Of a stretch of 64,000 bases of DNA, positions 22,128 to 38,595 are shown one piece after another. The first letter of the stretch is position 1. Every line of letters starts with the position of its first letter. Both the position numbers and the translations under genes were made by a program. Source of the stretch: a virus. The DNA lies in IMG/VR virus record IMGVR_UViG_3300023202_000142, positions 32,001-96,000 of that record. One strand, written 5' to 3'. A model generated the notes under the pieces. It searched no databases, was not told the DNA's origin, and saw only the letters and a program-made list of their open reading frames with translations.

Positions 22128-23345
22128 ATGGAAAAGACCTGTCCCAGATGCGGTGCCCACGCCGCCTGTCCCGAGGAGATCGACCTCGTGTTCGGGTGGC
22201 GCTACGAAGGTACCACTCCTCAGTCGTGGTGCCACGACTGTCGGACCCGACGCGGTGAGTTCGCTGCTGAGCGAGTCAGCCTGGACGTCGGTGCCCGACT
22301 CGGCGCCACCTACTTCGCCAGCGGCTCGAATCACCCTGGTGAGATTCTCGGTCTCGCCGAGTGCGGGATCGATGTCGGCGTCGCAATTCAGGATCTGCAC
22401 TCCGATGGCGAGGCGGCCATCGCTGAGGCCGTCACCCGCTTCGGCGTCTCGGTCTTTGTCGACTCTGGCGCCTTCTCCGAGGTCAGCTTCGGTCCTGACG
22501 GCCCCTACGTCTCCGACCGGATCCCTGATGACGAGTGGCGGGCTCGCCTCGCGGCCTACGAACGAATCGCGTCAGACATCGGCTCTGCGCTCTTCGCCGT
22601 CGCCCCTGACATGATCGCTCATCAGATCGAAACCCTGGGCCGCATGGAAAAGTTCCGCAACGAAATCCGAGCGGTCGCCGCCCACGGCGCCAACGTTCTC
22701 GTTCCGGTCCAGAAGGGTGAGCTGGCGATGTCGGAGTTCTGGGAACTGGCCACTGAGACCCTTGGGGTCGACGACCCCGTTGCCGCGGTTCCGATGAAAA
22801 AGGACGCCACGACGACCGACGAATTCGCTGAGTTCCTGGCAGCTTGCCGGCCCGGTCGGGTCCACCTGCTCGGTCTGGGGCCCAAATCCTCCCGGTTCCG
22901 GGAAGTGATGGCGGTCGCCCGCTCGGTGAGCCCGGAGACCGAGGTGTTCTGTGACTCCGTTCTCATCACTTCACTGGTCGGCCGAAGCAACGGCCGCGGC
23001 GGCGGACCCCGGCCGTTAACCGCGGCCCATGACGAAGTCGTCGAGTTCGTTGAAGGCGGCGTCTTTGTCGGTGACGTCTCTCCCGCCCTGGACTGGACGG
23101 AGATGGCGACCCGCCCGAGTTACTGGGTGTCAGCAACCGGCCTGAAACGAGTTGCCCGCTTTGCTGGTCTCACCGGTTCCACCCGAGCCGCCTTTCTCAA
23201 GGATCCCGATGAATGGGTTGAAGAGAACTGGGAGAACCCGCTGGTCGAGGTCGCCCTGGAGGCCGAGTGGGCCAAGTGGGCCAAGGGTTCCGGTTCCACT
23301 CGGTTCCGTAAGCGAGAGTCGCTCAAGGCGCTGTTCATGGTCTGA
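22128..23345 (+). CDS. tRNA-guanine transglycosylase/DpdA-like TIM-barrel protein with N-terminal Zn ribbon
   Basis: FVDSGAFS, APDMI, VPVQKG, RVHLLGLG, CDS motifs in TGT order. Confidence 0.7.
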   Translation: MEKTCPRCGAHAACPEEIDLVFGWRYEGTTPQSWCHDCRTRRGEFAAERVSLDVGARLGATYFASGSNHPGEILGLAECGIDVGVAIQDLHSDGEAAIAEAVTRFGVSVFVDSGAFSEVSFGPDGPYVSDRIPDDEWRARLAAYERIASDIGSALFAVAPDMIAHQIETLGRMEKFRNEIRAVAAHGANVLVPVQKGELAMSEFWELATETLGVDDPVAAVPMKKDATTTDEFAEFLAACRPGRVHLLGLGPKSSRFREVMAVARSVSPETEVFCDSVLITSLVGRSNGRGGGPRPLTAAHDEVVEFVEGGVFVGDVSPALDWTEMATRPSYWVSATGLKRVARFAGLTGSTRAAFLKDPDEWVEENWENPLVEVALEAEWAKWAKGSGSTRFRKRESLKALFMV

Positions 23346-23348
23346 GCG

Positions 23349-23384
23349 TTGACACCCCTACCAAGGATGTGAATCATGTGCACA
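23349..23384 (+). promoter_or_regulatory. promoter TTGACA-N17-AATCAT; operator 23368-23384; near-leaderless ATG 23385
   Basis: TGTGAATCATGTGCACA. Confidence 0.65.
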
Positions 23385-23636
23385 ATGACTGACGATGAAA
23401 TCGCCGAGACGCTCCGAGGCGCCCTCGCTAGACTCAGTGACGGGTCGGGCTCCGAGGGCATGGTCGAAGACCTCGACCCCGCTTCCGTGGAGTTGAACCG
23501 GGCCTCGGTGAGGACCGGAGACATCTATTACCGAGACGCCTCTCGATCGATCGACAAAGCCATGTTGCTCATCGAGAACGAAGACTACGATGGCGCCGTC
23601 GTCGAACTGGATGTCGCGTTGAGTTTCGTTTCATGA
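23385..23636 (+). CDS. hypothetical protein
   Basis: starts directly after operator. Confidence 0.65.
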   Translation: MTDDEIAETLRGALARLSDGSGSEGMVEDLDPASVELNRASVRTGDIYYRDASRSIDKAMLLIENEDYDGAVVELDVALSFVS

Positions 23637-23884
23637 AGATACCTTGTGAAAAGTGCTTCAAGCTGTATCGGGCAGACGAACATGACGTCTGTCCGAACTG
23701 TAAAGGGCATGGCGTGCCGATGACGACCGAGGATGTTGTCAGAGCCCACTGCTACGCCAACCAGGTCAGGCTCGTTTCGCTGGATTTCCTGCTAGAACTG
23801 TTCGGCGAAGCAGGTCTCATCGTATGCGGTGATGATGGGCTGACCGTCACAGTCTGGCGACCGGATACAGGAGAAAAGAAGTGA
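23633..23884 (+). CDS. small Zn-ribbon protein
   Basis: CEKC..CPNC. Confidence 0.6.
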   Translation: MKIPCEKCFKLYRADEHDVCPNCKGHGVPMTTEDVVRAHCYANQVRLVSLDFLLELFGEAGLIVCGDDGLTVTVWRPDTGEKK

Positions 23885-24483
23885 GTTCTACCGCTGACCA
23901 TTTCCGCGAAGGGGCCCCCGATTTTTACCCGACCCCGCTATGGTGCGTCGATCGGCTATTTGACGCCTTCGAACCGCCCGAGGGGAAGTGGCTGGAACCC
24001 GGGGCAGGCAACGGTCAGATTATCCGAGCTGCATCTCACCACGGATTCTTCCCCGACTGGACAGCCATCGAACTACAGCCCGAACTGGAAACGAACCTGT
24101 TGCAGGTCCTGCCCCCTGAGTCCGTGCTGTGTCCGCAGGATTTCTTCGAGATCAATCCGTTGGGTCGATTTGATCTCGCTATCGGCAACCCGCCGTTCAA
24201 CCTGGCAATGCAGTTCATCGAGAAGTGCCTCGACGTCGCTTACACTACCGCATTCTTGCTACGCCTGAACTTCCTCGGCACCGCGAAGCGCGCCCCGTTC
24301 TTCCATGATCGAATGCCAGATGTCTACATCCTGCCGGACCGGCCGAGCTTCAAAGGCGGCCGGCGCGACTCAATCGAGTATGCCTGGTTCGTCTGGAGGT
24401 CGGGCGTCTACCGAACCTGGGGGCGTACCGTCGTGTTACCCACCACACCCCTGAAAGTCCGTAAGGAACGAAACCATGTCTGA
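23881..24483 (+). CDS. amino (N6-A/N4-C) DNA methyltransferase, small phage type
   Basis: FYPTP, LEPGAGNG (SAM-binding), IGNPPF catalytic motif. Confidence 0.8.
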   Translation: MSSTADHFREGAPDFYPTPLWCVDRLFDAFEPPEGKWLEPGAGNGQIIRAASHHGFFPDWTAIELQPELETNLLQVLPPESVLCPQDFFEINPLGRFDLAIGNPPFNLAMQFIEKCLDVAYTTAFLLRLNFLGTAKRAPFFHDRMPDVYILPDRPSFKGGRRDSIEYAWFVWRSGVYRTWGRTVVLPTTPLKVRKERNHV

Positions 24484-25033
24484 CGCCCAGCTCGTTGTAA
24501 TCGTCGGCCCCAGCGGAGTCGGCAAAACCACGTTGACCCAGATCCTCCAGGAGAGGAACGACTGGCCAATCGCAGTCTCTCATACCTCCCGACCGCCCCG
24601 TGACGGCGAGGTCGACGGCGTCGACTACCACTTCGTCCCGAAGCATCACATCCAGGCAGCAATCGAGGATGGCTCCGTAGTGGAATGGGCGGAGTACAAG
24701 GGAAACCTCTACTGTCTCACCGCCGACGAACTGGAGCGCGATGAAATCACCACCGTCGTCGTCGAGAGGGCGGGTCTCGACCATCTCCTGGACCGCTACG
24801 GGCATGAGGGTGTGTTGTCGGTACTGGTGCTGCCTCCGAGCCTGCACGACCTCAGAAAGCGTCTACGCGGCCGTGGGGATGACCCCGAACTGATCGAGAA
24901 GCGCATGAAGACCGCCGTCGAGGAGTGCGCGCTGGATCGCGAGTTCGCCCTCCTCGTCGTCAACGGTGACGAGTATGAGGCGGCCAGCCGGATCGCAGGT
25001 GTCGCGGAGTGGAAGTACGAACCGTGCTTCTGA
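24476..25033 (+). CDS. gmk: guanylate kinase
   Basis: GPSGVGKTT, SHTSRPPRDGEVDGVDYHFV, EWAEYKGNLY, PPSLHDLRKRLRGRG. Confidence 0.92.
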   Translation: MSDAQLVVIVGPSGVGKTTLTQILQERNDWPIAVSHTSRPPRDGEVDGVDYHFVPKHHIQAAIEDGSVVEWAEYKGNLYCLTADELERDEITTVVVERAGLDHLLDRYGHEGVLSVLVLPPSLHDLRKRLRGRGDDPELIEKRMKTAVEECALDREFALLVVNGDEYEAASRIAGVAEWKYEPCF

Positions 25034-25058
25034 CTGCGTCCCGGTGTAGGCTGCGCTC

Positions 25059-25664
25059 ATGGCTATCCGGTACAAAACTCGACGGGTGGAATACGGGCAC
25101 TACGAAATCCGTGCCTACGACGGCCGCAAGCGCATCGGTCGCATCGTGATCATGAACCTGGGGAAGCTGGCAAGCGTTGAGGCCGTCCGGGTCGCTGACG
25201 AATACCAGCGTCAAGGGATCGCCACTGAACTCTACTTGATGGCGGCCAAGGTCTCCTGCAAAGAATTCGGTAAGCCGCTTGCGTCAGCGAACTGGGGATC
25301 TATCCCCGCCGCCAAAGGGGTGTGGCGAAAGCTTGTATCGAAGGGCAAGGCGAAGCGCTACACTCAGAAGAAACACCACAAGGACATACAGGGTTACCTG
25401 ATTCCCTGCAGGGGCGTCGAGATCCCCGACGGTGTCGTCATCGAGTCGCTCGTCGAGTACATCGATCACCTCCTAGAAGCTGAGGGCTCCCTGGTAGACA
25501 TGGCACGTGACCGTGCGCGCGGGGATGCTCCGGCGGGGTCAGGCAAGGCCGACTACTTGCCCGATGAGCCCGAGGAAGAGCCCGAGGAAGAGCCCGAGGA
25601 AGAGCCCGCCCAGCCCGGCACCGATGCGACCACCGCTGGTGTCCCGGGTGTCGGTGTCGACTAA
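25059..25664 (+). CDS. GNAT-fold acetyltransferase with internal tag (LVEYIDHLLEA) and acidic tail
   Basis: VRVADEYQRQGIATELY acetyl-CoA motif A. Confidence 0.75.
   Translation: MAIRYKTRRVEYGHYEIRAYDGRKRIGRIVIMNLGKLASVEAVRVADEYQRQGIATELYLMAAKVSCKEFGKPLASANWGSIPAAKGVWRKLVSKGKAKRYTQKKHHKDIQGYLIPCRGVEIPDGVVIESLVEYIDHLLEAEGSLVDMARDRARGDAPAGSGKADYLPDEPEEEPEEEPEEEPAQPGTDATTAGVPGVGVD
25566..25607 (+). repeat. 12-bp tandem repeat GAGCCCGAGGAA, about 3.5 copies (EPEE repeats)
   Basis: direct reading. Confidence 0.9.
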
Positions 25665-25667
25665 GGG

Positions 25668-25711
25668 TTGACCTCCTGGTCAATCGAGGCTTACTGTGCG
25701 CGGACTTCACA
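25668..25711 (+). promoter_or_regulatory. promoter TTGACC-N18-TACTGT with weak operator-like site 25695-25711
   Basis: TGTGCGCGGACTTCACA. Confidence 0.45.
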
Positions 25712-25730
25712 ATCCAGTACAGGAGTCAAG

Positions 25731-26582
25731 ATGCCAGAAATGAGAATCCAGGTGCTCGACGGCGGGTTCGTCGAACTCATCGACATCATGGGCGACGACC
25801 GCGCGATCGAAGAGGCGGCCCGGGTGTCCTACAAGGGCACCCGCGACGAGGAGCGAGATCCCAAGCAGACCAGGGGGTTGATCCGGTATCTGATGCGCAA
25901 CCGTCACACCTCACCCTTCGAGATGGTGTCGTTCAAGTTCGCCTGCAGGATGCCGATGTTCGTGGCCCGGCAATGGGTCCGCCACCGCACCGCGAGTCTG
26001 AATGAAATCAGCGGAAGGTATGCCGAACTGCCGGCCGACTACTACGTTCCCGCGCCCGAGCGCGTGACGTTCCAGTCCAGGTCCAACAAGCAGGGCTCGT
26101 CGGACGAACAGCTCGAAGAGCCAGCCGAATGGATTGAAGAGTTCGACACCGAAGCCATCAGTGCGTTCGAGTTGTACCAGGAGCGCCTCGAAGCCGGGAT
26201 GGCCAAGGAGTTGGCGCGCATCAATCTACCGTTGTCGACATACACTGAGTGGGTCTGGAAGATGGACCTCCACAACCTGTTCCACTTCCTCAATCTCAGG
26301 CTGCATCCTCACGCCCAGCACGAGATTCGGGTCTACGCCAAGGCTATCGCGGAGTTCGTCAAGCAAGCGGTCCCGGTCTCCTGGGGCGCATTCGAGGACT
26401 ACGTGCTCAACGCCATCCATCTCACCTACCCCGAGCAGGTCGCGATTCGGCAAATGCAGGAACCAGTTGAAGCTAACTTCGAGGATGCCTGCAAGGCCGC
26501 TGAGCTGAGCGGACGTGAGCAGCGCGAGTTGCGCGAAAAGCTCGATGTTCTGGAGATCGGCAGGGTCGAGATCCCTTTCTGA
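25731..26582 (+). CDS. thyX: flavin-dependent thymidylate synthase
   Basis: AARVSY, RHTSPFE, FVARQWVRHRTASLNEISGRY, ELARINLP, LRLHPHAQHEIR. Confidence 0.97.
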   Translation: MPEMRIQVLDGGFVELIDIMGDDRAIEEAARVSYKGTRDEERDPKQTRGLIRYLMRNRHTSPFEMVSFKFACRMPMFVARQWVRHRTASLNEISGRYAELPADYYVPAPERVTFQSRSNKQGSSDEQLEEPAEWIEEFDTEAISAFELYQERLEAGMAKELARINLPLSTYTEWVWKMDLHNLFHFLNLRLHPHAQHEIRVYAKAIAEFVKQAVPVSWGAFEDYVLNAIHLTYPEQVAIRQMQEPVEANFEDACKAAELSGREQRELREKLDVLEIGRVEIPF

Positions 26583-26622
26583 ACTCGATGCATCTAAGCT
26601 CTAGTTCGGCTACGCTGAGGTT

Positions 26623-27078
26623 ATGACAGAAGAAACCGTCAATCTCGCTGACATTGTCCAGTTCGCCTCGCAGCACTGGGTAGAACTGGGCACCGGGGCC
26701 GCAGCGGTGACCGCTACAATCTTCCTGGTCGAACTGGGTAAGGGCTGGTTGAAGCTGTGGGTCGCGGATCGTGGCTACTCCGAGCAGTTCGAGGAGAACG
26801 CCGTCCGAACCCTGGTCTTTGCGCTGTCGGTGCCAGTCGCCTGGCTCCTCGAATTCGGCAAGACCTGGGAGTCGTTCTTCGGTAGACCCATGGGCACCGG
26901 CGCCGAGCTGTTCGTTGGCGGAGCCATCACAGCGATCATTAGCATCGTGGTTTACCTGTTCATCCACCGCATTGAACCGATCGAGGTAGCCAGACTGAAG
27001 CTCTACAAGTGGCTGAAGGTCAGCCCCGGCGAAATCGAGAAGGCCCGAAACAACCGACGCGACCAAAAAGGTTCTTGA
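26623..27078 (+). CDS. membrane protein with about 3 TM segments, possible holin
   Basis: hydrophobic segments and basic C-terminus. Confidence 0.5.
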   Translation: MTEETVNLADIVQFASQHWVELGTGAAAVTATIFLVELGKGWLKLWVADRGYSEQFEENAVRTLVFALSVPVAWLLEFGKTWESFFGRPMGTGAELFVGGAITAIISIVVYLFIHRIEPIEVARLKLYKWLKVSPGEIEKARNNRRDQKGS

Positions 27079-27104
27079 CCGCATCGCGACCCCGTCGCTA
27101 CAGT
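27075..27104 (+). promoter_or_regulatory. promoter of tRNA array 1: TTGACC-N18-TACAGT
   Basis: hexamers directly after the upstream stop codon. Confidence 0.7.
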
Positions 27105-27116
27105 CGTCGTCACGGG

Positions 27117-27224
27117 ATGCGACCGGCCACCTTGGAACGAAAACATGATGCAATCATTGCCCAGTCAGATTTGCTCCTCGCTGCTTCCGAGCAGCCACTG
27201 GAGGCGTCTGCGCTGAGCGACTGA
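27117..27224 (+). CDS. putative leader peptide 1, 35 aa (MRPATLERKHDAIIAQSDLLLAASEQPLEASALSD)
   Basis: ATG about 6 nt after predicted +1; Leu/Ser/Gln/Pro-rich distal half; stop about 21 nt before terminator. Confidence 0.6.
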   Translation: MRPATLERKHDAIIAQSDLLLAASEQPLEASALSD

Positions 27225-27276: not shown

Positions 27277-27281
27277 GTTTG

Positions 27282-27303: not shown

Positions 27304-27308
27304 TGTAA

Positions 27309-27382
27309 GCCCGGGTAGGCTAACTGGCAACGCCGCGGTCCTAAGAAGGCCGTGAGTGTGGGTTCGACTCCCACCCCGGGTA
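27309..27382 (+). tRNA. tRNA-Leu(AAG), short variable loop
   Basis: cloverleaf; CGGTC-ctAAGaa-GGCCG; A73. Confidence 0.8.
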
Positions 27383-27384
27383 CT

Positions 27385-27456
27385 GCTCCCGTACCCCAAC
27401 GGCAGAGGAGCGGCCTTAAAAGCCGTCGAGTCCGGGTTCGATCCCCGGCGGGAGCA
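27385..27456 (+). tRNA. tRNA-Leu(TAA), short variable loop
   Basis: GCGGC-ctTAAaa-GCCGT; TTCGA T-loop. Confidence 0.85.
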
Positions 27457-27458
27457 TG

Positions 27459-27531
27459 GCGCCCATAGGCCAACAGGAAGAGCCGCGTGGTTCAAACCCC
27501 GTGGGTCCAGGTTCGATCCCTGGTGGGCGCA
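27459..27531 (+). tRNA. tRNA-Leu(CAA), bulged anticodon stem, short variable loop
   Basis: acceptor GCGCCCA/TGGGCGC; loop ttCAAac. Confidence 0.7.
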
Positions 27532-27535
27532 TGAT

Positions 27536-27621
27536 GGAGGGTTGGCAGAGCGGTAATGCATCGGTCTTGAAAACCGACGAGTCCCTGACGGGGCGCGAGG
27601 GTTCGATCCCCTCACCCTCCT
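27536..27621 (+). tRNA. tRNA-Ser(TGA)
   Basis: TCGGT-ctTGAaa-ACCGA; long variable arm. Confidence 0.92.
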
Positions 27622-27625
27622 CTGA

Positions 27626-27697
27626 CTGGGTGTGGGCCAGTGGTTGGCCACTTGCTTTGGGAGCAAGGTTACGGGGGTTCGAATCCCTCCACCCAGA
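27626..27697 (+). tRNA. tRNA-Pro(TGG)
   Basis: CTTGC-ttTGGga-GCAAG. Confidence 0.9.
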
Positions 27698-27770
27698 TGA
27701 CCTGTAGCTCAATTGGCAGAGCACTGCACTTTGACTGCAGTGGTTCGAGGTTCGAATCCTCGCAGGTCAA
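27698..27770 (+). tRNA. tRNA-Gln(TTG)
   Basis: CTGCA-ctTTGac-TGCAG; U1-A72. Confidence 0.92.
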
Positions 27771-27773
27771 TGC

Positions 27774-27844
27774 GGCGACGTGTGCGAGTGGTTAGCGCTC
27801 GGATTGCAAACCCGAGGACGCGGGTTCGAGTCCCGCCGTCGCCT
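27774..27844 (+). tRNA. tRNA-Cys(GCA)
   Basis: loop ttGCAaa; U73. Confidence 0.9.
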
Positions 27845-27845
27845 T

Positions 27846-27930
27846 GGAGCAGTGGCAGAGTGGCAATGCAGCGGGTTGCTAACCCGTAGGTCGTTTCGAC
27901 GGCCCGGGGGTTCGATCCCCTCCTGCTCCG
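27846..27930 (+). tRNA. tRNA-Ser(GCT)
   Basis: loop ttGCTaa; long variable arm; G73. Confidence 0.92.
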
Positions 27931-28000
27931 TATCTCACTGAAATCGAGCTGGAATCAGCTCGGAGCTGGCTGCTAGGGTCGGGTAACCCTGGAGGCTCAG

Positions 28001-28273
28001 ATGACTCTGACAGAACACGTGGACCTTCTCCTCGAAGCGCGCATGTCGTCGCGGGAGCAGAAGCTAGTCGGTAACATGTTGGTGGGCATGGAGATGGAAG
28101 AATACGGTGGCAACACCGAGCGCTTCTACCGCTGGATCGAGCGGAAGACGGATGAATTCCTGGAGGAACTCTACGCAAGGCTCGAAGGTAACGTGCGCGA
28201 AGCCGACCGGAAGAGGCTAACATCGCTAAAGGCCAGGGAGTACATTGCATTGCACAACATGGCGCTAACCTAG
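28001..28273 (+). CDS. tagged hypothetical protein (MTLTEHVDLLLEA)
   Basis: GGAGG SD; tag. Confidence 0.75.
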   Translation: MTLTEHVDLLLEARMSSREQKLVGNMLVGMEMEEYGGNTERFYRWIERKTDEFLEELYARLEGNVREADRKRLTSLKAREYIALHNMALT

Positions 28274-28282
28274 CCCGCCTCG

Positions 28283-28501
28283 CTAACCGAGGTCTCCGGG
28301 CTCAGCCCCGTCGAGAACTCCGAGGACCAGTCGACGGTATTCGTCTCGGGGGATCTCGATGGCGTCGGCGATGGCATCAAGGATGTCTCCGGGGGTGCAG
28401 CCTGCTCGAAGACGACTGACGATGATAGCACCTCCGACCACGAGTCGGTCGGGATTGACGTACATCTCAAGGGTTGGTTCAGAATCTTGTGCATTGGGCA
28501 T
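28283..28501 (-). CDS. hypothetical protein
   Basis: SD AGGAG on the - strand. Confidence 0.6.
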   Translation of the reverse strand: MPNAQDSEPTLEMYVNPDRLVVGGAIIVSRLRAGCTPGDILDAIADAIEIPRDEYRRLVLGVLDGAEPGDLG

Positions 28502-28569
28502 CTCCTATCCCCTCCAACTGCGTTTTGATAGTCTGAGGCTGTCCGTAGCTCGACGCAACAGGAGACGCA

Positions 28570-28980
28570 ATGAGAGACATTCTGAACCGCTTACTGAGTA
28601 GACTGCCCCACCAGTGGGCTCGTGATGCCTCGACCGGCCAACACGCCCTCCTGGAGGCTGTGAGCTTCGAATTGCAGCGCATCTATGATCGAATCGGCGG
28701 TCGGCCCGATCAAATCGTGTTCGAACGCGTCGATCTGATGAACCCCTCACCCGACGATGTCCTGGTGTTGACCATGAAGGTCCCGACATCATTCGGGATC
28801 ACGAACTGGATCGACCAGGCGCAACGGATGAGTGATGACCTCAAGGATGCCCTGGGGGTTCGTGAAATCATCGTACTGCCAGACATCGTACACATCGAAA
28901 ACCTGGGTAATCTCGACGCCAACACCGCAAAAGAGCTTGGGAAGCTCAGGAATGTCATCGCGGCACTGAAGGGTGCTTGA
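28570..28980 (+). CDS. hypothetical protein
   Basis: SD AGGAG. Confidence 0.65.
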   Translation: MRDILNRLLSRLPHQWARDASTGQHALLEAVSFELQRIYDRIGGRPDQIVFERVDLMNPSPDDVLVLTMKVPTSFGITNWIDQAQRMSDDLKDALGVREIIVLPDIVHIENLGNLDANTAKELGKLRNVIAALKGA

Positions 28981-29005
28981 CGACCGAATCCAGGTTCAGT
29001 AGGGT
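28977..29005 (+). promoter_or_regulatory. promoter of tRNA array 2: TTGACG-N17-TAGGGT
   Basis: canonical spacing; overlaps upstream stop as in array 1. Confidence 0.75.
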
Positions 29006-29018
29006 TCGTTTTGAAGCA

Positions 29019-29120
29019 ATGCTCACTGCCCGAGAAGGACAGATGCTTTCAACACGGATGGAAACAGGTACGGATAATCGCTGGACCGGGACGCCCCGGG
29101 CCGGAGGCGATGTCGTGTAA
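29019..29120 (+). CDS. putative leader peptide 2, 33 aa (MLTAREGQMLSTRMETGTDNRWTGTPRAGGDVV), not in ORF track
   Basis: ATG about 7 nt after predicted +1; Thr/Met/Glu/Asp/Asn/Trp-rich centre; stop 23 nt before terminator. Confidence 0.6.
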   Translation: MLTAREGQMLSTRMETGTDNRWTGTPRAGGDVV

Positions 29121-29175
29121 CTGTTGTTCATCGACATGAGTCTAGGCCCGGAGGAAACCCCTCCGGGCCTTTTCT
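29096..29175 (+). terminator. attenuator 2: terminator AGGCCCGGAGG-aaacc-CCTCCGGGCCT plus U-tract; antiterminator CCGGGCC at 29096-29102
   Basis: 29096-29102 is complementary to 29145-29151. Confidence 0.7.
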
Positions 29176-29183
29176 CGTTCTGG

Positions 29184-29205
29184 GGTCTTTGAAAATTGAA
29201 GATGA
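29184..29205 (+). promoter_or_regulatory. boxA-like element GGTCTTTGAAAATTGAAGATGA
   Basis: 20/22 identical to 27282-27303. Confidence 0.6.
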
Positions 29206-29209
29206 AAAG

Positions 29210-29281
29210 TGGTCGGTAGCTCAGCGGTAGAGCGTCGGGTTGTTAACCCGAGGGTCGTGGGTTCGAGCCCCACCCGGCCAG
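29210..29281 (+). tRNA. tRNA-Asn(GTT)
   Basis: TCGGG-ttGTTaa-CCCGA; G73. Confidence 0.93.
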
Positions 29282-29285
29282 TTCA

Positions 29286-29358
29286 GCCCCCTTGGCCCAG
29301 TGGCTAGGGCAACCCGTTGTCTGCGGGAAGATCGTCGGTTCGACTCCGACAGGGGGCG
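29286..29358 (+). tRNA. tRNA-Asp(GTC)
   Basis: loop ttGTCtg; G73. Confidence 0.88.
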
Positions 29359-29376
29359 CTGGGGGCAACCCCATGA

Positions 29377-29450
29377 AGCGGGATAGAGCAGTCTGGTAGC
29401 TCGTCGGCCTCATAAGCCGAAGGCCGGGGGTTCAAATCCCCCTCCCGCTA
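29377..29450 (+). tRNA. tRNA-Met(CAT), initiator-like
   Basis: fMet-type D arm and TTCAAAT loop; A1-U72; anticodon stem TCGGC/GCCGA. Confidence 0.85.
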
Positions 29451-29451
29451 C

Positions 29452-29515
29452 TGAGTGCGCACATCGACCAAGGCGGTCCTAGATCACGGGTACGCGGGTT
29501 GGTGAAGGCGGCTCA
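29452..29515 (+). ncRNA. unassigned hairpin RNA of about 64 nt inside the tRNA array
   Basis: TGAGT/GCTCA and CATCGACC/GGTTGGTG stems; not a cloverleaf. Confidence 0.4.
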
Positions 29516-29517
29516 AT

Positions 29518-29591
29518 GCCAGTGTAGCTCAATCAGGCAGAGCAGCTCCCTTGTAAGGAGAAGGCTGGGGGTTCGATTCCCTTCACTGGCT
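29518..29591 (+). tRNA. tRNA-Thr(TGT)
   Basis: loop ctTGTaa. Confidence 0.9.
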
Positions 29592-29595
29592 TAGC

Positions 29596-29668
29596 GTCGC
29601 CGTCATCTAGTGGCCCAGGATGCCGGGTTTTCAGTCCGGTCACGGGGGTTCGAGTCCCCCCGGCGATA
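29596..29668 (+). tRNA. tRNA-Glu(TTC)
   Basis: CCGGG-ttTTCag-TCCGG. Confidence 0.88.
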
Positions 29669-29672
29669 CTGT

Positions 29673-29746
29673 AGGGAGCGCGCGCTGGGTACGCGGTCTG
29701 GCCTCCAAAGCCGGACGACAGCTCGGATCGTCACCGAGGCTCTCTG
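29673..29746 (+). tRNA. tRNA-Trp(CCA) with atypical T-loop ATCGTCA
   Basis: loop ctCCAaa; CTCGG/CCGAG T stem; G73. Confidence 0.75.
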
Positions 29747-29751
29747 TGTGC

Positions 29752-29843
29752 AGGCGTGGCCCGCCAGAGCTGGAGAGCTGGGCCGGGCTGTAAACCCGGT
29801 GCACCCAAATAAGACTGAGTGGGTTCGACTCCCACCTCCCCTA
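29752..29843 (+). tRNA. tRNA-Tyr(GTA), atypical (two acceptor mismatches); possibly pseudo-tRNA
   Basis: perfect CCGGG-ctGTAaa-CCCGG and T arm; degenerate acceptor and D arm. Confidence 0.55.
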
Positions 29844-29853
29844 TGGAGAATGC

Positions 29854-30069
29854 ATGACACGCAACGATGACATCACCCCCTACGCGCGGCGCATCAGGCG
29901 TATGCTGCATGAGCGCATGAACCCCGAAGCGGTCGAGGTCGAGGTCGAGATCATGCGACGTCTTCGTGAGACCTCCGAGCGCAGTGTCTACCACCGCGCC
30001 ATGCTCACGCCCCTACCTGTTGAGTCTGGAGGTGCCGCGTTTCTGCGGCGCGACAAACCCGAGGAGTGA
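29854..30069 (+). CDS. hypothetical protein
   Basis: GGAG SD, 71 aa between tRNAs. Confidence 0.55.
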   Translation: MTRNDDITPYARRIRRMLHERMNPEAVEVEVEIMRRLRETSERSVYHRAMLTPLPVESGGAAFLRRDKPEE

Positions 30070-30074
30070 GGTTC

Positions 30075-30148
30075 GGGCCGGTAGCTCAGTTTGGCAGAGC
30101 GGCGGATTCTTAATCCGCAGGTCGAGGGTTCGATCCCCTCCCGGCTCA
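30075..30148 (+). tRNA. tRNA-Lys(CTT)
   Basis: GCGGA-ttCTTaa-TCCGC. Confidence 0.93.
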
Positions 30149-30152
30149 CTTC

Positions 30153-30228
30153 GCGCCCGTAGCTCAACTAGGTTCAGAGCATTCGACTTTTAATCGAAGG
30201 GTTCTCGGTTCGATTCCGAGCGGGCGTG
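30153..30228 (+). tRNA. tRNA-Lys(TTT)
   Basis: TTCGA-ctTTTaa-TCGAA. Confidence 0.93.
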
Positions 30229-30244
30229 CTGTACGATCCCTTCC

Positions 30245-33061: not shown

Positions 33062-33541
33062 ATGCTCATCCAACAAACCATCACGAATGCCAGCTCGACG
33101 GACGCGCTGGAGCTGCCGCCGGTCCTCGGTGGTGCCGAGATCGCCGCGTCGGGTTCGGAGTCCAACGTCATCGACACCGACAACGTCACCGAGGAGTACC
33201 TGGAAGCCCTCCAGGACCTCGTCGACGCCGGCGATGCCACCGTCACCTTCGCGCAGACCGCCTTCGAGGAGAATGACGTCCTCGGCGCCTTCAACAAGGC
33301 GATGTCACAGCAGGCGCTCCAGGAACGCGCCGGCACGCAGGCTTTCGCCGCCTCGACATCGGAGTCGGTCTCCCTCTCCCAGGACATGCCGGACACTGAC
33401 TACGTCGTGCTGACCGAGATGTCGGCCGACCCGTCCGATGCACAGGGGCCATGGATCACGAACAAGGCTGTCGACGGTTTCGATATCGAGTTCGATGCCG
33501 CCGTCACCATGGATGTGACCTGGGTCGTCAAGGCGATCTAA
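33062..33541 (+). CDS. acidic beta-rich protein, probable virion/fibre component
   Basis: DYVV...WITNKAVDGFDI...VTWVV resembles fibre C-terminal modules. Confidence 0.5.
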   Translation: MLIQQTITNASSTDALELPPVLGGAEIAASGSESNVIDTDNVTEEYLEALQDLVDAGDATVTFAQTAFEENDVLGAFNKAMSQQALQERAGTQAFAASTSESVSLSQDMPDTDYVVLTEMSADPSDAQGPWITNKAVDGFDIEFDAAVTMDVTWVVKAI

Positions 33542-33560
33542 CCCTGACAGGGGGAACGCT

Positions 33561-33595
33561 GGGCCCGTCACGGTTGTGGCGGGCCCGTTCTTTTT
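33561..33595 (+). terminator. intrinsic terminator
   Basis: GGGCCCGTCAC/GTGGCGGGCCC stem plus TTCTTTTT. Confidence 0.75.
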
Positions 33596-33677
33596 GTAGG
33601 GTGAGTTTCACCGGCAAGCTGCGATCCGGGTCAACAGCGCAGCACTCCAAACGAAACCGAACATACAGGAGTGCACC

Positions 33678-34148
33678 ATGCGCAACCCAGTACGAGCCAA
33701 GTTCAGAATTCTCAAGAAAACCGTCGACTGGCGAGGCACCGCGATCTACGAATTCGCGCCCGTCCTCAAGGACTCGGACGACGAATCAGAGAACTCGCTG
33801 TTCTGGTCTGCATCCCCATCCGGCGAGATGCAGCTCACCTTCAAAGAGGACCCCAAGCACGACATCGGGGCTTACTACTACCTCGACTTCACCCCCGTCG
33901 AACTCAGCGGACCCCCCAAGGAAGATCCCAGGCAGATCTGGGGCGTCGACAAAGTGACGCGGCACTTCGGCGGCCAAACCGATGTCCGTATGAGCCCGCG
34001 TGGAGGACCGCTGCTGAGCTGGAGTTCGTATTTCCAGGTCCAGATCGATCACGAGAAAACCGAGGCTCACGATTCATTCGGGGACGGGTCTGAGCCGGAC
34101 AATCACTGGACGCTGGACATCACCTTCGCTGAACCCAGTGACGACTAG
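33678..34148 (+). CDS. conserved-type phage hypothetical protein (AKF...EN..FW.ASPSG...YYLDFTP)
   Basis: family-typical motif; AGGAG SD. Confidence 0.75.
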   Translation: MRNPVRAKFRILKKTVDWRGTAIYEFAPVLKDSDDESENSLFWSASPSGEMQLTFKEDPKHDIGAYYYLDFTPVELSGPPKEDPRQIWGVDKVTRHFGGQTDVRMSPRGGPLLSWSSYFQVQIDHEKTEAHDSFGDGSEPDNHWTLDITFAEPSDD

Positions 34149-35458
34149 GCGGCCTCGGCGCAACCATCGTCTTGCTCCGCCTCTCGTTTCGCCTTGCGGC
34201 GCTCACGCGCCGCCTTGTTGCGGCAGGGGCGGCAGTAGGACTGGGGTTTCGTCCGGTTGTACCGCAGACCAAAGCGCTCATCGACGTTGGCGATTCCGGT
34301 CGCGGTCTCACCGCAGCAGGGGCACTCGGCCTCCATCGGGTCTTCGAGCATCTCCATCACTTCGATCCACGCGGCATCAAATCCGCGACCGGATTTCTCG
34401 GTGACTACTGCCGGGGCGGCGACGAGAAACTCTTCAACAGCCGGGTATCCTTCTCGTCGAGTCCTCAGTTTGACGACGTGGTCTTCAACCTCGCCTCGAC
34501 ATGCAAGTTCCTCGACAACCTCAGCCCGGGAGCCGTCGAAGATCTTCTCGATCTTCCTGCCGGTGTAACCGCGTCGCGTCGCGTCTTTCTTCGAGGGCTT
34601 AAAGACCCGTCGCATCCGATAGACGGCCCAGGGCCGGGCTTCGTCGGTCGACAGTTCTTTGAAGCGCCGCAGCGCCTCGATGTTGCCGGATCGCTCGACC
34701 AGTTCGCGCATCGAACGCGTTTTGAAGAGCTTCATCCGGGGATTGAATCGCAGCGCGATTTCCTCCATCTCCAGGGCCCGGGCAACCTCTTCGGGCTCTT
34801 CCTTCCATCGCGACTGAACTCCACAGTCTGGCCGAGCGAAGGGGCAGAACACGCAGGCCGACTTCCGCCACCGCACTCCGGTAACGCTCTCGATGTAGTC
34901 GACACAGGCAGCACGATCCCAGCCCCAGTCGATCAAGGGGTAGCTGGGCTCACGACCTGGCACGGTTCCGAAGGTCTGGTCCTTCTCGACACGTCGTTCC
35001 TCACCCTTAGCGAAGCCGATGACATGGGTGTAAGGCGCACCATCCAGGAAGCCCTCGATCCATTCATCGAGGACGTACCCCTTGAACTTCAGGCTGCACT
35101 TCCGGGTTCCGCCGGTGGTTGGAATTGTTGCGGCCTCAACCATTTCGTCAGACAGCTTGTAGGCGCCGTCGAGGTGAAGTTCGGTAGGCTCCGTGGAGTC
35201 GTCGAGAACAACGATGCCGTCCGACGTGAATCGGCCGCCCTTGGCGACCTGGACATAACGGATCCCGTGGGCGCGCATGCGCGGGAGTACGTGCTCGCGC
35301 ACGAGCGCGCCCGAGCTGGTGAATTCGTTTCCAGTCATCGACGTAATGACAACCAGTTCGTCGAGCGGACAGGGCCGGGTTTCGGGTTCCTCGATCCAGC
35401 GCAACAGGATGGCTGTGGAGTCGACACCCATGCCGTAGCTGAGTATCACTTGAGTCAT
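34145..35458 (-). CDS. PP-loop/PAPS-reductase-like enzyme with C-terminal Zn ribbon
   Basis: SYGMGVDS PP-loop, CSLKFK, YPL, KSACVFCPF; start reassigned behind GGAGGTAGC. Confidence 0.75.
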   Translation of the reverse strand: MTQVILSYGMGVDSTAILLRWIEEPETRPCPLDELVVITSMTGNEFTSSGALVREHVLPRMRAHGIRYVQVAKGGRFTSDGIVVLDDSTEPTELHLDGAYKLSDEMVEAATIPTTGGTRKCSLKFKGYVLDEWIEGFLDGAPYTHVIGFAKGEERRVEKDQTFGTVPGREPSYPLIDWGWDRAACVDYIESVTGVRWRKSACVFCPFARPDCGVQSRWKEEPEEVARALEMEEIALRFNPRMKLFKTRSMRELVERSGNIEALRRFKELSTDEARPWAVYRMRRVFKPSKKDATRRGYTGRKIEKIFDGSRAEVVEELACRGEVEDHVVKLRTRREGYPAVEEFLVAAPAVVTEKSGRGFDAAWIEVMEMLEDPMEAECPCCGETATGIANVDERFGLRYNRTKPQSYCRPCRNKAARERRKAKREAEQDDGCAEAA

Positions 35459-35459
35459 C

Positions 35460-35515
35460 GCTACCTCCTTTTGTGGGGTCAGTGAGATTGTGTGCACAGA
35501 GTGAACTTCAGTCAA
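35460..35515 (-). promoter_or_regulatory. promoter TTGACT, operator 35491-35507, ACCCCA, RBS GGAGGTAGC
   Basis: direct motif reading on - strand. Confidence 0.75.
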
Positions 35516-35524
35516 GGAGCAAGC

Positions 35525-35773
35525 ATGTGGGTCCGAAGTGACGCTGAAGGGGTTTTCGAGCTGAGCGAAGTTGACGGGATCTGGATTGACCACGAGGGGT
35601 CTCTGCCGACTCTCTACATCACCAGGCGCAACAGTGGCCGCCCTGTCGCGATGATGAGCCACCGGGACCCAACGGCCCTCTCCGAGGTCAAGAAAGGACT
35701 GGAGAAGGCCCTGGGCGTCCATGAGGGCGCCCACGACATCGCGTCATTCAAGAGCTACGATTATCGCTATTGA
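35525..35773 (+). CDS. hypothetical protein
   Basis: AGGAG SD. Confidence 0.6.
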   Translation: MWVRSDAEGVFELSEVDGIWIDHEGSLPTLYITRRNSGRPVAMMSHRDPTALSEVKKGLEKALGVHEGAHDIASFKSYDYRY

Positions 35774-36239
35774 GACAGTCTTCCGGGGTTACTTCGAGAT
35801 CCCGGAACAGCATGCGGAGAACAGCTTCCGCGGTCGAAGCCCGATTAGCGGCATCACTGATGATTTCCTCGCCCAACTCGGGATTGTCTGAGAAGTGATC
35901 TCGAACCTTCGCCTTGACCTCTTCGGTCATCACGTTGCCAGCCTTCTCGACCAACTCGCCGAGACGTTCTCGGCCGACATCTGCCCAGTTCATCGCGTTC
36001 TTCGAGCCCCTGCCGCTCAATGAGCCGTCCGCGTTAACGGTCAGCCAGCGTTTCGACTTCTGCCATTCTGAGAAGCCACGGCGACCGCAGGTTCGATACT
36101 TCGAGTTGGGGTAGATTCGCACGACATCGTCACCAGCCCAGACGTTCGCATCGAGCCAGCGCGAGTTGTTGCTCGCCCGGTTGAGTGCGACGAGAACTTC
36201 GCCGTGTCGCTTTCGCTCTGCAACGGTCATGTCGGTCAT
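35748..36239 (-). CDS. hypothetical protein
   Basis: start reassigned behind GGAGGTAGC. Confidence 0.7.
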   Translation of the reverse strand: MTDMTVAERKRHGEVLVALNRASNNSRWLDANVWAGDDVVRIYPNSKYRTCGRRGFSEWQKSKRWLTVNADGSLSGRGSKNAMNWADVGRERLGELVEKAGNVMTEEVKAKVRDHFSDNPELGEEIISDAANRASTAEAVLRMLFRDLEVTPEDCLNSDNRSS

Positions 36240-36240
36240 C

Positions 36241-36314
36241 GCTACCTCCTGTCGCGGGAGCGGGGTTGGCTCCCTGGTGCATCTTGATGATGTGCACGCA
36301 TTGCACGATGTCAA
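36241..36314 (-). promoter_or_regulatory. promoter TTGACA, operator 36291-36307, ACCCC-loop hairpin 36256-36274, RBS GGAGGTAGC
   Basis: direct motif reading. Confidence 0.8.
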
Positions 36315-36318
36315 CGGT

Positions 36319-36708
36319 CTATCTGTTTCGTGCTCGGTTGTTGATGTCTTCCCAGTTGAGACCGTTGAGCAACTCTCTTGCGACCTCACTATCCCTCAAG
36401 GTGTCGCCGAGGGCATCTGTGAGGGCCATCATGGCGTCCTTGCGGGATTCTTCGGTGTAGAGACCACCTGCCATTGCAATTCGGTTGAAGTCGCCTGAGA
36501 GGCGAATGAGGGTGCCCTCAAGGCCATCCGCGCCGACTGCCCTGGCGGCCTTGCTGGCCATGTCCAGCATGTTCCATGCGGACATGGCATCAGCGTTGAG
36601 ATCCGGTCCATCTGGGCCAGCCATTTTGAGGCGCCGCAGTAACCCTGAGCTACCGTATCCCCAGCGATTGAGGATCTCGTCGATTTCGGCTCTGAATGAT
36701 TTCGGCAT
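36319..36708 (-). CDS. hypothetical protein
   Basis: AGGAG SD. Confidence 0.65.
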   Translation of the reverse strand: MPKSFRAEIDEILNRWGYGSSGLLRRLKMAGPDGPDLNADAMSAWNMLDMASKAARAVGADGLEGTLIRLSGDFNRIAMAGGLYTEESRKDAMMALTDALGDTLRDSEVARELLNGLNWEDINNRARNR

Positions 36709-36716
36709 CAGGTCTC

Positions 36717-37046
36717 CTATCGGTCGTATCGAGCCAGTTCGTCAGCCAGCGCTGCCGTTGCCGTTTCGACGGCAACGTGAGCGTCATGCATTCGATCCTC
36801 GAACCCTTCAGCGAGCTTGACGCCTCGCTCGTAGAGATCGGTGTAGGCAGCGGCGTTCTTCACGGCCTCATGGAGGGCGCGACAGGCATCGAACAAGCCG
36901 GGGTTCTCTTCCAGGACCCAGCGGGCAAGAACCCAAACGTTTCGCCAGCCCCACTCCCAGTGGGGCATGGCGCTGAACGCCGCCTCCGAGACGTAGGCGA
37001 CCGCGTTGGTATCCGCAGCCACGGTCATGTTGGTCACTTCGGTCAT
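36717..37046 (-). CDS. hypothetical protein
   Basis: start reassigned behind GGAGGTAGT. Confidence 0.7.
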   Translation of the reverse strand: MTEVTNMTVAADTNAVAYVSEAAFSAMPHWEWGWRNVWVLARWVLEENPGLFDACRALHEAVKNAAAYTDLYERGVKLAEGFEDRMHDAHVAVETATAALADELARYDR

Positions 37047-37047
37047 G

Positions 37048-37125
37048 ACTACCTCCTCTGAAAACGGGGAGGCGGGGTACCCTCCCCGGGCAAGGACAAT
37101 GTGAACACAGTGCACACACCGTCAA
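37048..37125 (-). promoter_or_regulatory. promoter TTGACG, operator 37100-37116, ACCCCG-loop hairpin 37065-37088, RBS GGAGGTAGT
   Basis: direct motif reading. Confidence 0.8.
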
Positions 37126-37571
37126 GGGACATGCTTCCAGGTTTTTCGTTTAACCAGGTGACTGATCGCCGTGTGGGTCACGCCATATTCCCTACCCAGG
37201 GCCCGGAACGACTCACCCTGGGCAGACCTCTTCCGAATTTCCAGGACATCGTCGGGCGTGAGTTTCGCTGTGTTAACCCTTACACCCTTTGCTGTTCGGC
37301 CCTTCCTGACCGCGTCAAGGCGATTCTCTTTCTGCGTTCCCAACTTCAGGTGAGACGGACGAACGCAAGATGGATTGTCGCAAGTATGCATGATGATCTT
37401 GCCGTCCGGGATGGGCCCGTTCTCCAATTCAAACGACACTCTATGAACGTACTCATTTTTGCCGTTACAGCCGATGTACCCGTAACCAGCAGCATTGCTG
37501 GCACCTTCAAACACCCAGCATTCACCAGATTCATTGACCTTCTCGTAGAGCCTCTCACGTACGTTTGGCAT
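37122..37571 (-). CDS. free-standing HNH homing endonuclease with C-terminal HTH
   Basis: CWVF...GYG...VHRVS...MHTCDNPSCVRPSHL..GT..EN..D. Confidence 0.9.
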   Translation of the reverse strand: MPNVRERLYEKVNESGECWVFEGASNAAGYGYIGCNGKNEYVHRVSFELENGPIPDGKIIMHTCDNPSCVRPSHLKLGTQKENRLDAVRKGRTAKGVRVNTAKLTPDDVLEIRKRSAQGESFRALGREYGVTHTAISHLVKRKTWKHVP

Positions 37572-37596
37572 AGCGCCTCCTCAGCGGGTTACATTG

Positions 37597-38595
37597 TTAC
37601 ATGTTCCACTCAGGAGTCATTTCGTCAAGGTCGACCTCTTCATCAGCTTTGACGGCTTCGAGAACCTCGGCCAACGAGAGGTTCTGTCGAAACGTGTGGT
37701 CGATGCGGTCTTCGACCGCGACGTACTCTTCGAGCAACTCCCGGTTGTGCTTCCCGGCGAGCACCAGGGCTTCCTTGGGGGCGAAGATGCAGAACGCGCA
37801 ACTCAGTCGCGGCATCCCCAGGTCGTAGGCCGGGTGGTGGGGAACGCCGGAGGCCCGAATCGTGGCCCAGACCTCGTGCTCCAGCCAGTGCTGAATCGGC
37901 AGCCAGGAGTCGACGTGCTGATTCGAGTTCGACTTCCGGTTCTCGAACTGGGTCTTCTTGGCGCGAGCCGGGGATTCCTCGGCTCGCAGACCCATGCAGT
38001 CCAGAATCCGGCAAGGACGACAGTCAGCCTTCTCGGGGTTCACCTTGCGCCACTCGCGGGCAAGCTGAGTGAAGACCTTGAGGATCGGACCGCGCTTGAA
38101 CTCCGAAGTGCACCAACGAGCGGCCGACGACGGCCAGGCCCCGCGACGCTCCGCGTAGTCCAGGATGTCTCCGTAGGTCTCACCCTTGGAGTAGGTCTTG
38201 CCGTTAACCTTGCAGATTCCACCGATCCTGGACGTCACGATGAAGGGGCACCCGTAAGCTTTGGCCTGTTCTTCGGCCAGCTCGCCGGTTCCCTCCCATT
38301 CGACTTTGCCGAGATCGGCATGAATGACGACGACGCGATCAGCGATGCCAGCATCTGACGCCAACCCGTGGACGTAGTCGAGCATGGCCTGGGAGTCCTT
38401 CCCGCCGGACGACGACACCGCGATGACATCGTACTCGGTGAGGTCGGGAACGACCCCGGCCTCGAACGACTCACCTGCGAAGCAGCGTTTGCAGTACGTG
38501 GAGGGCTTCTCGCCGCCGTACCGAAGCCCGAAGACCTCCCGGCATTCGTCCTTGGTCTCAGCGCGGACACCGCACTTGGGACACTCGTGGTTCAT
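37597..38595 (-). CDS. PAPS-reductase-family (PP-loop) enzyme with N-terminal Zn ribbon
   Basis: SSGGKDSQA, WCTSEFK, GLRAEES..R, LPI..W, HPAY..G..RLSCAFCI. Confidence 0.85.
   Translation of the reverse strand: MNHECPKCGVRAETKDECREVFGLRYGGEKPSTYCKRCFAGESFEAGVVPDLTEYDVIAVSSSGGKDSQAMLDYVHGLASDAGIADRVVVIHADLGKVEWEGTGELAEEQAKAYGCPFIVTSRIGGICKVNGKTYSKGETYGDILDYAERRGAWPSSAARWCTSEFKRGPILKVFTQLAREWRKVNPEKADCRPCRILDCMGLRAEESPARAKKTQFENRKSNSNQHVDSWLPIQHWLEHEVWATIRASGVPHHPAYDLGMPRLSCAFCIFAPKEALVLAGKHNRELLEEYVAVEDRIDHTFRQNLSLAEVLEAVKADEEVDLDEMTPEWNM

Follow-up and report, generated by a model that had tools for sequence, protein, structure and literature searches.

A zinc module shared by DpdA/TGT-like and PAPS-reductase-like proteins of a T4-like phage as a possible DNA-directed tag on early enzymes

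The stretch of viral DNA considered here (the window; 64,000 nucleotides, bases 32001-96000 of the 185,324-base IMG/VR record IMGVR_UViG_3300023202_000142) encodes three proteins of different enzymatic character that carry the same small zinc module, hereafter also called the ribbon. These are P0001, which resembles DpdA and the tRNA-guanine transglycosylases (TGTs), and two PAPS-reductase-like proteins, P0002 and P0003; a fourth carrier, with an HExxH motif, is encoded outside the window. The locus raises the question of what a single module does on such different enzymes. The original prediction, made from the sequence alone, proposed a modular address domain bringing several base-modifying enzymes to one substrate or scaffold, in an undescribed DNA or tRNA modification system. 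We read the ribbon, with moderate confidence, as a portable tag, probably binding DNA, on the early enzymes of a disaggregated toolkit for DNA modification and anti-restriction. The record is estimated to be about 90% complete and has a G+C content of about 60%. A megablast search of the region against deposited phages revealed no DNA-level similarity, and a tblastn search with P0001 against deposited phages gave no match.

The strict form of the motif, CPxCG-x2-A-x9-FG[LW]RY-x4-P[QS][ST][WY]-CxxC, spans 34 residues. A six-frame regular-expression scan of the entire 185-kb genome found it exactly three times (Table 1), and no match was obtained in 20 codon-shuffled genomes. The translations and the scan bear out a shared zinc motif with identical spacing at the ends of the three genes named originally, including the C-terminus of the protein of open reading frame (ORF) 34145. 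The start of that frame had been placed at 35734; the real start is the ATG at 35458, behind the ribosome-binding site (RBS) tag GGAGGTAGC. The same scan, together with a protein search of the genome, revealed a fourth, looser copy with a five-residue insertion in its first half. A fifth regular-expression match has stop codons inside and was discarded as spurious. All four genuine copies were matched by a hidden Markov model (HMM) of family members from outside this genome (E 1.9e-17 to 1.4e-11), and the ribbon copies are also matched by phrog_34160 and phrog_19700.

The 34-residue spacing recurs in 25 of 150 segments from other organisms and should therefore be regarded as a subfamily trait, not as a trace of recent copying. 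The copies in the window are 44-47% identical to one another, versus 53-62% to outside members. The three window ribbons are closer to outside members than to one another, which led us to reject an origin by recent duplication within the genome. The P0001 copy and the fourth copy, which share 73% identity over 22 residues, may be recent duplicates.

An exhaustive search of 1.84 billion representative sequences with a profile of the four copies recovered at least 502 cluster representatives at E ≤ 1e-3, with 21 at E ≤ 1e-10. Among the 150 matches listed, 64 are no longer than 80 amino acids (aa), 45 have 81-140 aa and 41 are longer; most are stand-alone proteins of 46-130 aa, and several contain two or three tandem ribbons. 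The consensus is CPxCG-x2-A-xG-x2-EIE-x2-FG[FWY]R-x4-9-PQS[WY]C-x2-C, and beyond the cysteines the residues F, G, R, P, Q, S and W/Y hardly vary among hundreds of clusters. The family is found chiefly in viruses and conflict-system proteins. No Pfam model reaches its threshold for the family, only Lar_restr_allev and DUF2321 giving sub-threshold matches. The PHROG equivalents (34160, 19700 and 7682) are all annotated as being of unknown function, and phrog_34160 matches 55 of 55 stand-alone members. None of the atlas clusters nearest to the module has a Pfam 38.1 family; a weak atlas lead to NinD (score 0.84) was dropped, as it had no Pfam support. A word-indexed search with the 42-residue P0003 ribbon returned only the query itself. 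Judged by its conserved signature, the zinc module is a distinct, sharply conserved family without a curated Pfam model and not a generic ribbon.

The closest described counterpart by Pfam score is the Lar restriction-alleviation ribbon (PF14354), which gives the best, though weak, similarity for several members. Lar, too, is a small CxxC...CxxC protein that is encoded by phages and has an anti-restriction role. All scores are, however, under the curated cut-off of 28.6 bits (15 bits and E 0.029 for P0001, 23.8 bits for the best family member), and the FGxR and PQSWC signature lies outside the aligned part. An AlphaFold2 (AF2) model of copy 3, built with 59 homologs, reached a predicted local distance difference test score (pLDDT) of 88.5 and has a treble-clef-like topology. 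The modelled module is a C4 finger of about 40 residues, in which a knuckle hairpin with CPxC is followed by a short acidic helix, a second hairpin with FGxR and a further helix that starts with PQS[WY]-CxxC. Foldseek with this model gave only E values above 1, with weak matches to RING, PHD, FYVE and E6, and assigned no family. Family members have a mean net charge of +3.45, and a basic tail follows the ribbon. A complex prediction for two ribbon copies with zinc scored 0.01, which is evidence in neither direction.

The proteins to which the ribbon is fused in family members elsewhere include the methylases Dam, MT-A70, MTaX1 and N6_N4, DndB with a Schlafen domain, GmrSD, EVE and AspBHI_N, a ResIII helicase with HNH repeats, DnaD_N and Amidoligase_2. 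It seems from these domain assignments that the recognisable partners are almost all DNA-targeting, being involved in modification, restriction or other action on DNA, and that they are non-random. The original prediction was to be abandoned if the domain turned out to be a promiscuous ribbon with random partners; promiscuous it is, but those partners that can be identified are not a random set. The idea that the domain belongs specially to one modification system did not hold, given its at least 502 clusters, mostly stand-alone, and its many other partners.

Among cultured phages, the ribbon was found in only three, all of them lambdoid Shigella phages carrying Shiga toxin (Stx) genes. In Shigella phage POCJ13 (NC_025434), gp33 is a 197-aa hypothetical protein with the ribbon at its end, encoded between Q and stxA, and phages 7888 and 75/02 Stx have the same gene. 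The DnaD_N fusion protein P0196, which corresponds to POCJ13 gp33 in length and ribbon position, is probably of the same type. A tight group of ribbon proteins of about 215 aa without a known domain (P0277-P0289) is abundant in marine metagenomes. Some of these records are labelled as Nitrosopelagicus or as Thaumarchaeota metagenome-assembled genomes and may represent archaeal viruses or archaeal genes.

How the carriers came by the module can be seen from their relatives. In a BLASTP comparison, P0002 and P0003 share the ribbon alone (47% identity over 38 residues, E 1e-7), located at opposite protein ends. None of 119 P0001 homologs has a ribbon, and in 80 other loci the HMM of outside members detected none up to 10 kb from the DpdA-like gene. 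The nearest homolog of P0002, in locus L037 (55% identity), stops where the ribbon begins, the alignment of P0003 with its homologs starts only at about residue 50, and G001, the closest large relative (186 kb, complete), encodes a 472-aa DpdA-like protein that begins at the barrel and has no ribbon. Because the closest homologs of all three enzymes are ribbon-less, the ribbon was grafted onto each separately in this lineage. The notion of a modular address domain thus stands as far as a separate, portable domain is concerned, as the opposite ends and the ribbon-less homologs show, while a common substrate or scaffold is not supported. The sole ribbon-like ORF of G001 is 59 aa long, shortened and without the EIE helix, and the wider match contains one TGA.

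The P0001 family comprises at least 190 proteins, and its AF2 model has a pLDDT of 91. In a VIA-align comparison among 48,161 chains, DpdA (7ui4_A) was the top match (Z 15.6, root-mean-square deviation 3.2, 190 residues aligned, 19% identity), followed by ArcTGT (Z 13.6) and TGT (13.3); generic TIM barrels did not exceed 13.0, about 2.6 Z units below DpdA. TGT chains also head the Foldseek list (E 5e-6), yet with a TM score of about 0.35. All of 56 family members have the motif D112-S-G-A-F116, which is identical to the DSGAF of phage 9g DpdA (gp03), and at DSGAFS an hhalign comparison of the family with the phage 9g DpdA profile gave 80% probability (E 1.3e-5), as against 0.3% with E. coli Tgt alone. 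In DpdA, Asp95 acts as general acid/base, Phe99 in stacking, Asp130 in substrate binding and Asp256 as nucleophile, and His181 is a further listed residue (PMC10164549). A low-confidence extension of the hhalign alignment, and only this, places the invariant D161 (APD) and D276 (CDS) opposite 'LD' and 'CDSS' of 9g DpdA, with D161, Q195 and D276 opposite the positions of Asp130, His181 and Asp256, so that a glutamine stands where DpdA has His181. No match to P0001 was found in Pfam (E ≤ 0.1), NCBIfam or PADLOC; against Protein Data Bank sequences phmmer with P0001 gave nothing useful, and a 56-homolog profile had no match at E ≤ 10.

Thus, P0001 has the TIM-barrel fold, DpdA as its best structural match (7UI4) and a DSGAF motif identical with that of 9g gp03; it differs from DpdA and TGT in its N-terminal zinc module and in belonging to a family often embedded in giant polyvalent proteins. 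TIM-B/Beta_protein (PF14350, founded on the phage P4 beta protein), lately unified with the deazaguanine transglycosylase fold (bioRxiv 10.64898/2026.10.19.760177), is likewise a divergent TGT-like TIM barrel of conflict systems with predicted nucleobase transfer. It is described, however, as a host-side negative regulator with toxins, whereas the P0001 family is phage-borne and occurs in polyvalent proteins and with PAPS-reductase-like modules. The sole hint of kinship with TIM-B is the atlas cluster nearest to P0001, auto-named 'T4 beta protein family'; PF14350 did not match P0001 at E ≤ 10 in a search of the genome. On the modelled fold, the P0001 family is a further, phage-borne branch of divergent TGT-fold proteins, in which the exchange of guanine or 7-deazaguanine is putative.

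The PAPS-reductase-like character predicted for ORF 37597 (P0003) was confirmed by a match to PF01507 well above the cut-off (E 1.2e-16, 61.7 bits, cut-off 22.5) together with the SGGKDS motif; phrog_424 also matches (E 4.5e-34). In PADLOC, P0003 matched BrxP (8.5e-20), SspD (1.8e-6) and DndC (2e-3), the BrxP match covering only positions 132-339 of the 779-position model, and it has weak matches to TtcA (E 0.0019) and TilS (E 0.014). A locus search with P0003 returned one weak viral locus. For ORF 34145 (P0002) the same assignment comes only from phrog_424 'PAPS reductase' (E 1.1e-19), no Pfam model giving a match; its PP-loop is degenerate (SYGMGVDS). P0003 resembles DndC, SspD and BrxP by its PP-loop, its PF01507 match and its BrxP and SspD matches; P0002 and P0003 differ from them by the zinc module, which is absent from the PADLOC and Pfam models. 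No DndA/B/D/E, SspB/C or BREX partner came to light, although no search aimed at these was made. The view of PAPS-reductase or DndC-type enzymes as base-modifying had to be given up, since it is the DNA backbone, not the base, that is modified. In the literature, phage PAPS reductases are regarded as DndC/SspD homologs with an anti-defence role, one of which was reported to aid evasion of the host Dnd system (PMC13551039, citing Piel 2022). The fourth carrier contains a linker rich in proline and glutamate (PEPKPAPEPPEPEPEPDP) and, at its C-terminal end, an HEICH motif; it may represent a new metallopeptidase-like domain.

DpdA-like and PAPS-reductase-like modules are linked in other phages. 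In 13 of the 80 loci, iterated searches located a PAPS-reductase-like sequence no more than 10 kb from the DpdA-like gene. Both modules share a single open frame in L027 (1,982 aa), L039 (1,913 aa) and L068, and the frames of L027 and L039 also hold InPase, ART-PolyVal or Mom domains. About 38 loci have the DpdA-like module inside a frame of 600-5,725 aa, and other members of its family are fused to a C-5 methylase (Dcm), Mom, DUF6884 and ScoMcrA_N. The largest frames with this module (4,900-5,725 aa; L090, and also L084, L086, L088 and L089) encode giant polyvalent proteins. Homologs of both enzymes are therefore modules of what Iyer et al. 2017 (PMC5512222) call polyvalent proteins, and in both settings an early anti-defence role is presumed. 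The difference is that in the present genome they are separate genes for proteins of 332-437 aa, each with one enzyme domain and a ribbon, under early promoters, instead of one giant, possibly injected chain. Several unrelated effectors per chain, as in polyvalent proteins, are found in the homologs of L027, L039, L042 and L090, among other loci, and in none of the four proteins here. The survey in PMC5512222 does not mention TIM-barrel/TGT, PAPS or ZnR modules, and a search for literature joining 'polyvalent protein' and 'DpdA' yielded nothing beyond a passing citation.

All four ribbon genes have a common upstream layout consisting of a TTGAC-type -35 element, a GTGCAC box, a -10 element, a leader, GGAGGTAGC and ATG. 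The GGAGGTAGC tag precedes 23 genes genome-wide, 19 of them besides the ribbon carriers, and the presence of all four ribbon genes among them has a hypergeometric P of about 3e-5 (about 284 genes). The shared layout and tag, with this probability, place the four ribbon genes in an early tagged set. This set is no private regulon, being far larger than the four ribbon genes. Accordingly, the co-regulation suggested originally is upheld by the operator promoter and RBS on all four genes, but it is not exclusive to them, since 19 other early genes have the same tag.

In the reading of the ribbon as a DNA-directed tag, it would be an accessory module tethering its carrier to nucleic acid, most likely DNA, and in the lineage of this phage it was grafted independently onto four early enzymes, namely a DpdA/TGT-like transglycosylase, two mutually divergent PAPS-reductase/BrxP-like PP-loop enzymes and an HExxH protein. 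As the first two enzyme kinds have neighbouring genes in other phages or are fused within giant polyvalent proteins, this phage appears to carry the toolkit in disaggregated form, each enzyme having its own gene, the host-type early promoter set and the same tag. Acting together, the enzymes would modify the phage DNA as it enters or shield it from host restriction. The binding of DNA by the ribbon, DNA and not tRNA as the substrate, the cooperation of the enzymes and their chemistry are what we infer. A more specific version would have the ribbon act as a non-covalent substitute for the polyvalent linkage, concentrating the four carriers early on one target (incoming DNA or a hub protein), where the DpdA-like protein and the PP-loop pair would install an undescribed, preQ0-independent DNA modification; this version is tentative and rather unlikely.

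Several observations weigh against this reading. Two of the copies in the window have a net charge of -1 and 0 and are thus not basic, and fold searches with the 45-residue ribbon model gave a best Z of 2.9 (the Hpy99I Zn region and TFIIE ribbons), which is non-diagnostic. The DNA bias of the partners rests on an annotated minority, the function of most members and of many partners not being identifiable. The co-occurrence in 13 of 80 loci is a raw count with no background rate for random phage genes, and since polyvalent proteins string together independent effectors, fusion is no proof that the DpdA-like and PP-loop enzymes cooperate. Of the curated models, PF01702 (TGT) has no match in the genome at E ≤ 1 and PF23859 (DpdA) none at E ≤ 10. 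TGTs and Salmonella DpdA have in common a conserved structural Zn2+ site that follows the barrel (PMC10164549). P0001 lacks this site, as it has no cysteine after residue 275; its sole Cys4 set is that of the unrelated N-terminal module. The TGT/DpdA-like character predicted for ORF 22128 is thus sustained by fold and DSGAF motif, but neither by a curated HMM nor by the Zn site. The absence of Que and FolE genes, observed earlier in the window, extends to the whole genome, in which the FolE, QueD, QueC and TGT families have no match, so there is no preQ0 pathway, and no DpdB. Outside its ribbon, the fourth protein matched nothing in Pfam, PADLOC or PHROGs, and jackhmmer found no relatives of it in the 80 loci. 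Finally, because an array of 16 tRNA genes lies between the ribbon genes, tRNA is still a candidate substrate.

The ribbon might instead be a protein-protein adaptor docking its carriers on a conserved hub such as a restriction-modification enzyme (as Lar does), the sliding clamp, SSB or RNA polymerase. Sub-threshold matches to Lar (P0123 E 5.4e-5, P0132 7.6e-4, besides that of P0001) point in this direction, but with every score below the cut-off the CxxC spacing alone could explain them. Treble-clef fingers commonly bind proteins, in keeping with the weak Foldseek matches noted above, the plentiful stand-alone forms would suit small inhibitor or adaptor proteins, and the two non-basic window copies are neutral or acidic; the tandem ribbons and the basic mean charge of the family nevertheless suit nucleic-acid binding better. 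Moreover, the family occurs in very different phages and hosts and also on host defence enzymes (GmrSD, DndB, EVE). Such breadth would require a nearly universal hub, which makes DNA the simpler candidate, and we consider an adaptor unlikely.

A tRNA-directed system would combine TGT-like base exchange in phage or host tRNA with PP-loop enzymes acting as tRNA thiolase or in the manner of TilS/TtcA, the ribbon binding RNA. TGTs are classically tRNA enzymes, zinc ribbons often bind RNA, and the array between the genes includes tRNA-Asn(GTT) and tRNA-Asp(GTC). The best structural match of P0001, however, is the DNA enzyme DpdA, and its family is fused to the DNA enzymes Dcm, Mom and ScoMcrA_N; P0003, for all its weak TtcA and TilS matches, is far nearer to BrxP and SspD. 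With the partners of the ribbon elsewhere being DNA methylases and restriction modules, and none found of a known tRNA-modifying family, such a system appears quite improbable. Quite unlikely, in our opinion, is also the absence of any common function, in which case the ribbon would be a small structural or stabilising finger that spreads readily, on four independent carriers with unrelated substrates. This would fit a promiscuous, mostly stand-alone family with many partners of no known function, window copies that are not one another's closest relatives, and a promoter and RBS tag found on 19 further genes. It would leave aside that all four carriers are enzymes, three of them from families fused or adjacent elsewhere. 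In addition, as the ribbon is never on the homologs in the 80 other loci, its having been acquired four times over in a single lineage requires a selective explanation, and the near-invariant residues other than cysteine indicate that a surface for ligand binding, and not just the fold, is conserved.

The genes located 3' of P0001 form, by their predicted products, a nucleotide and DNA-modification cluster (23881-26582). The first encodes a possible accessory protein that matches phrog_799 'DNA methyltransferase' (E 1.4e-38) and also phrog_9133 and phrog_11358 (profiles of 1,259 and 3,431 positions), has no match in Pfam, and is linked to P0001 by position only. It is followed by genes for a guanylate kinase (PF00625, E 5.5e-27), a weakly GNAT-like protein and ThyX. 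According to ARAGORN, one tRNA inside the first tRNA array has a four-base anticodon 'caaa' and no amino acid assigned, and may be an odd-loop tRNA-Leu(CAA) or frameshift-suppressor-like. Immediately downstream of P0003 lies a gene for a homing-type HNH_3 endonuclease (PF13392, E 6.8e-16) with a C-terminal helix-turn-helix (HTH_38).

Table 1. Position of the ribbon genes, their modules and promoters, and other features (window coordinates unless stated otherwise)
Feature	Position	Strand	Description
Early promoter of P0001	22049..22127	+	TTGACG, GTGCAC operator boxes, leader, GGAGGTAGC RBS tag
P0001 (ORF 22128)	22128..23345	+	405 aa; N-terminal zinc module and DpdA/TGT-like TIM barrel
Zinc module copy 1	22140..22241	+	residues 5-38, N-terminus of P0001; family HMM E 1.9e-17
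Possible accessory gene	23881..24483	+	200 aa
Guanylate kinase	24476-25033	+	
GNAT-like ORF (weak)	25059-25664	+	
ThyX	25668-26582	+	
tRNA array	27309-30229		16 genes
tRNA with anticodon 'caaa'	27459-27531	+	
P0002 (ORF 34145)	34145..35458	-	437 aa (MTQV...); divergent PAPS-reductase-like PP-loop, middle region, C-terminal zinc module
Zinc module copy 2	34223..34324	-	C-terminus of P0002, basic tail after; family HMM E 9.3e-16
Early promoter of P0002	35459..35515	-	TTGACT, GTGCAC operator, GGAGGTAGC tag
HNH_3 endonuclease	37122-37571	-	
P0003 (ORF 37597)	37597..38595	-	332 aa; N-terminal zinc module and PAPS-reductase-family PP-loop; Cys in WCTSEFK, SCAFC
Zinc module copy 3	38482..38583	-	residues 5-38, N-terminus of P0003
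Early promoter of P0003	38596..38676	-	TTGTCA, GTGCAC operator, leader hairpin, GGAGGTAGC tag
Fourth ribbon protein	L004:484-1656 / genome 1903-3078, outside window	-	390 aa, ribbon at N-terminal end, HEICH (HExxH) motif
Fourth zinc module copy	genome 2920-3036, outside window	-	
Ribbon-like ORF of G001	L105:1528-1707	-	
POCJ13 gp33	L106:3596-4189	+	
Giant frame with DpdA-like module	L090:2984-20158	+	

If the reading of the ribbon as a DNA-directed tag is confirmed, a function could be assigned to a widespread, uncatalogued zinc family that ranges from viruses of the sea to Shiga-toxin phages, and its presence could then flag DNA-modification and restriction genes in phage and defence loci that lack annotation. 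The large DpdA-like family, invisible to the curated TGT, DpdA and TIM-B models although common in polyvalent proteins and joined repeatedly to PAPS-reductase-like modules, would likewise point to a DNA-modification or anti-restriction chemistry missed by present surveys of 7-deazaguanine and phosphorothioate modification. A tag shared by four enzymes would, on the same condition, provide a genetic handle on the targeting of early counter-defence enzymes and on whether co-localisation is necessary for the domains of polyvalent proteins.

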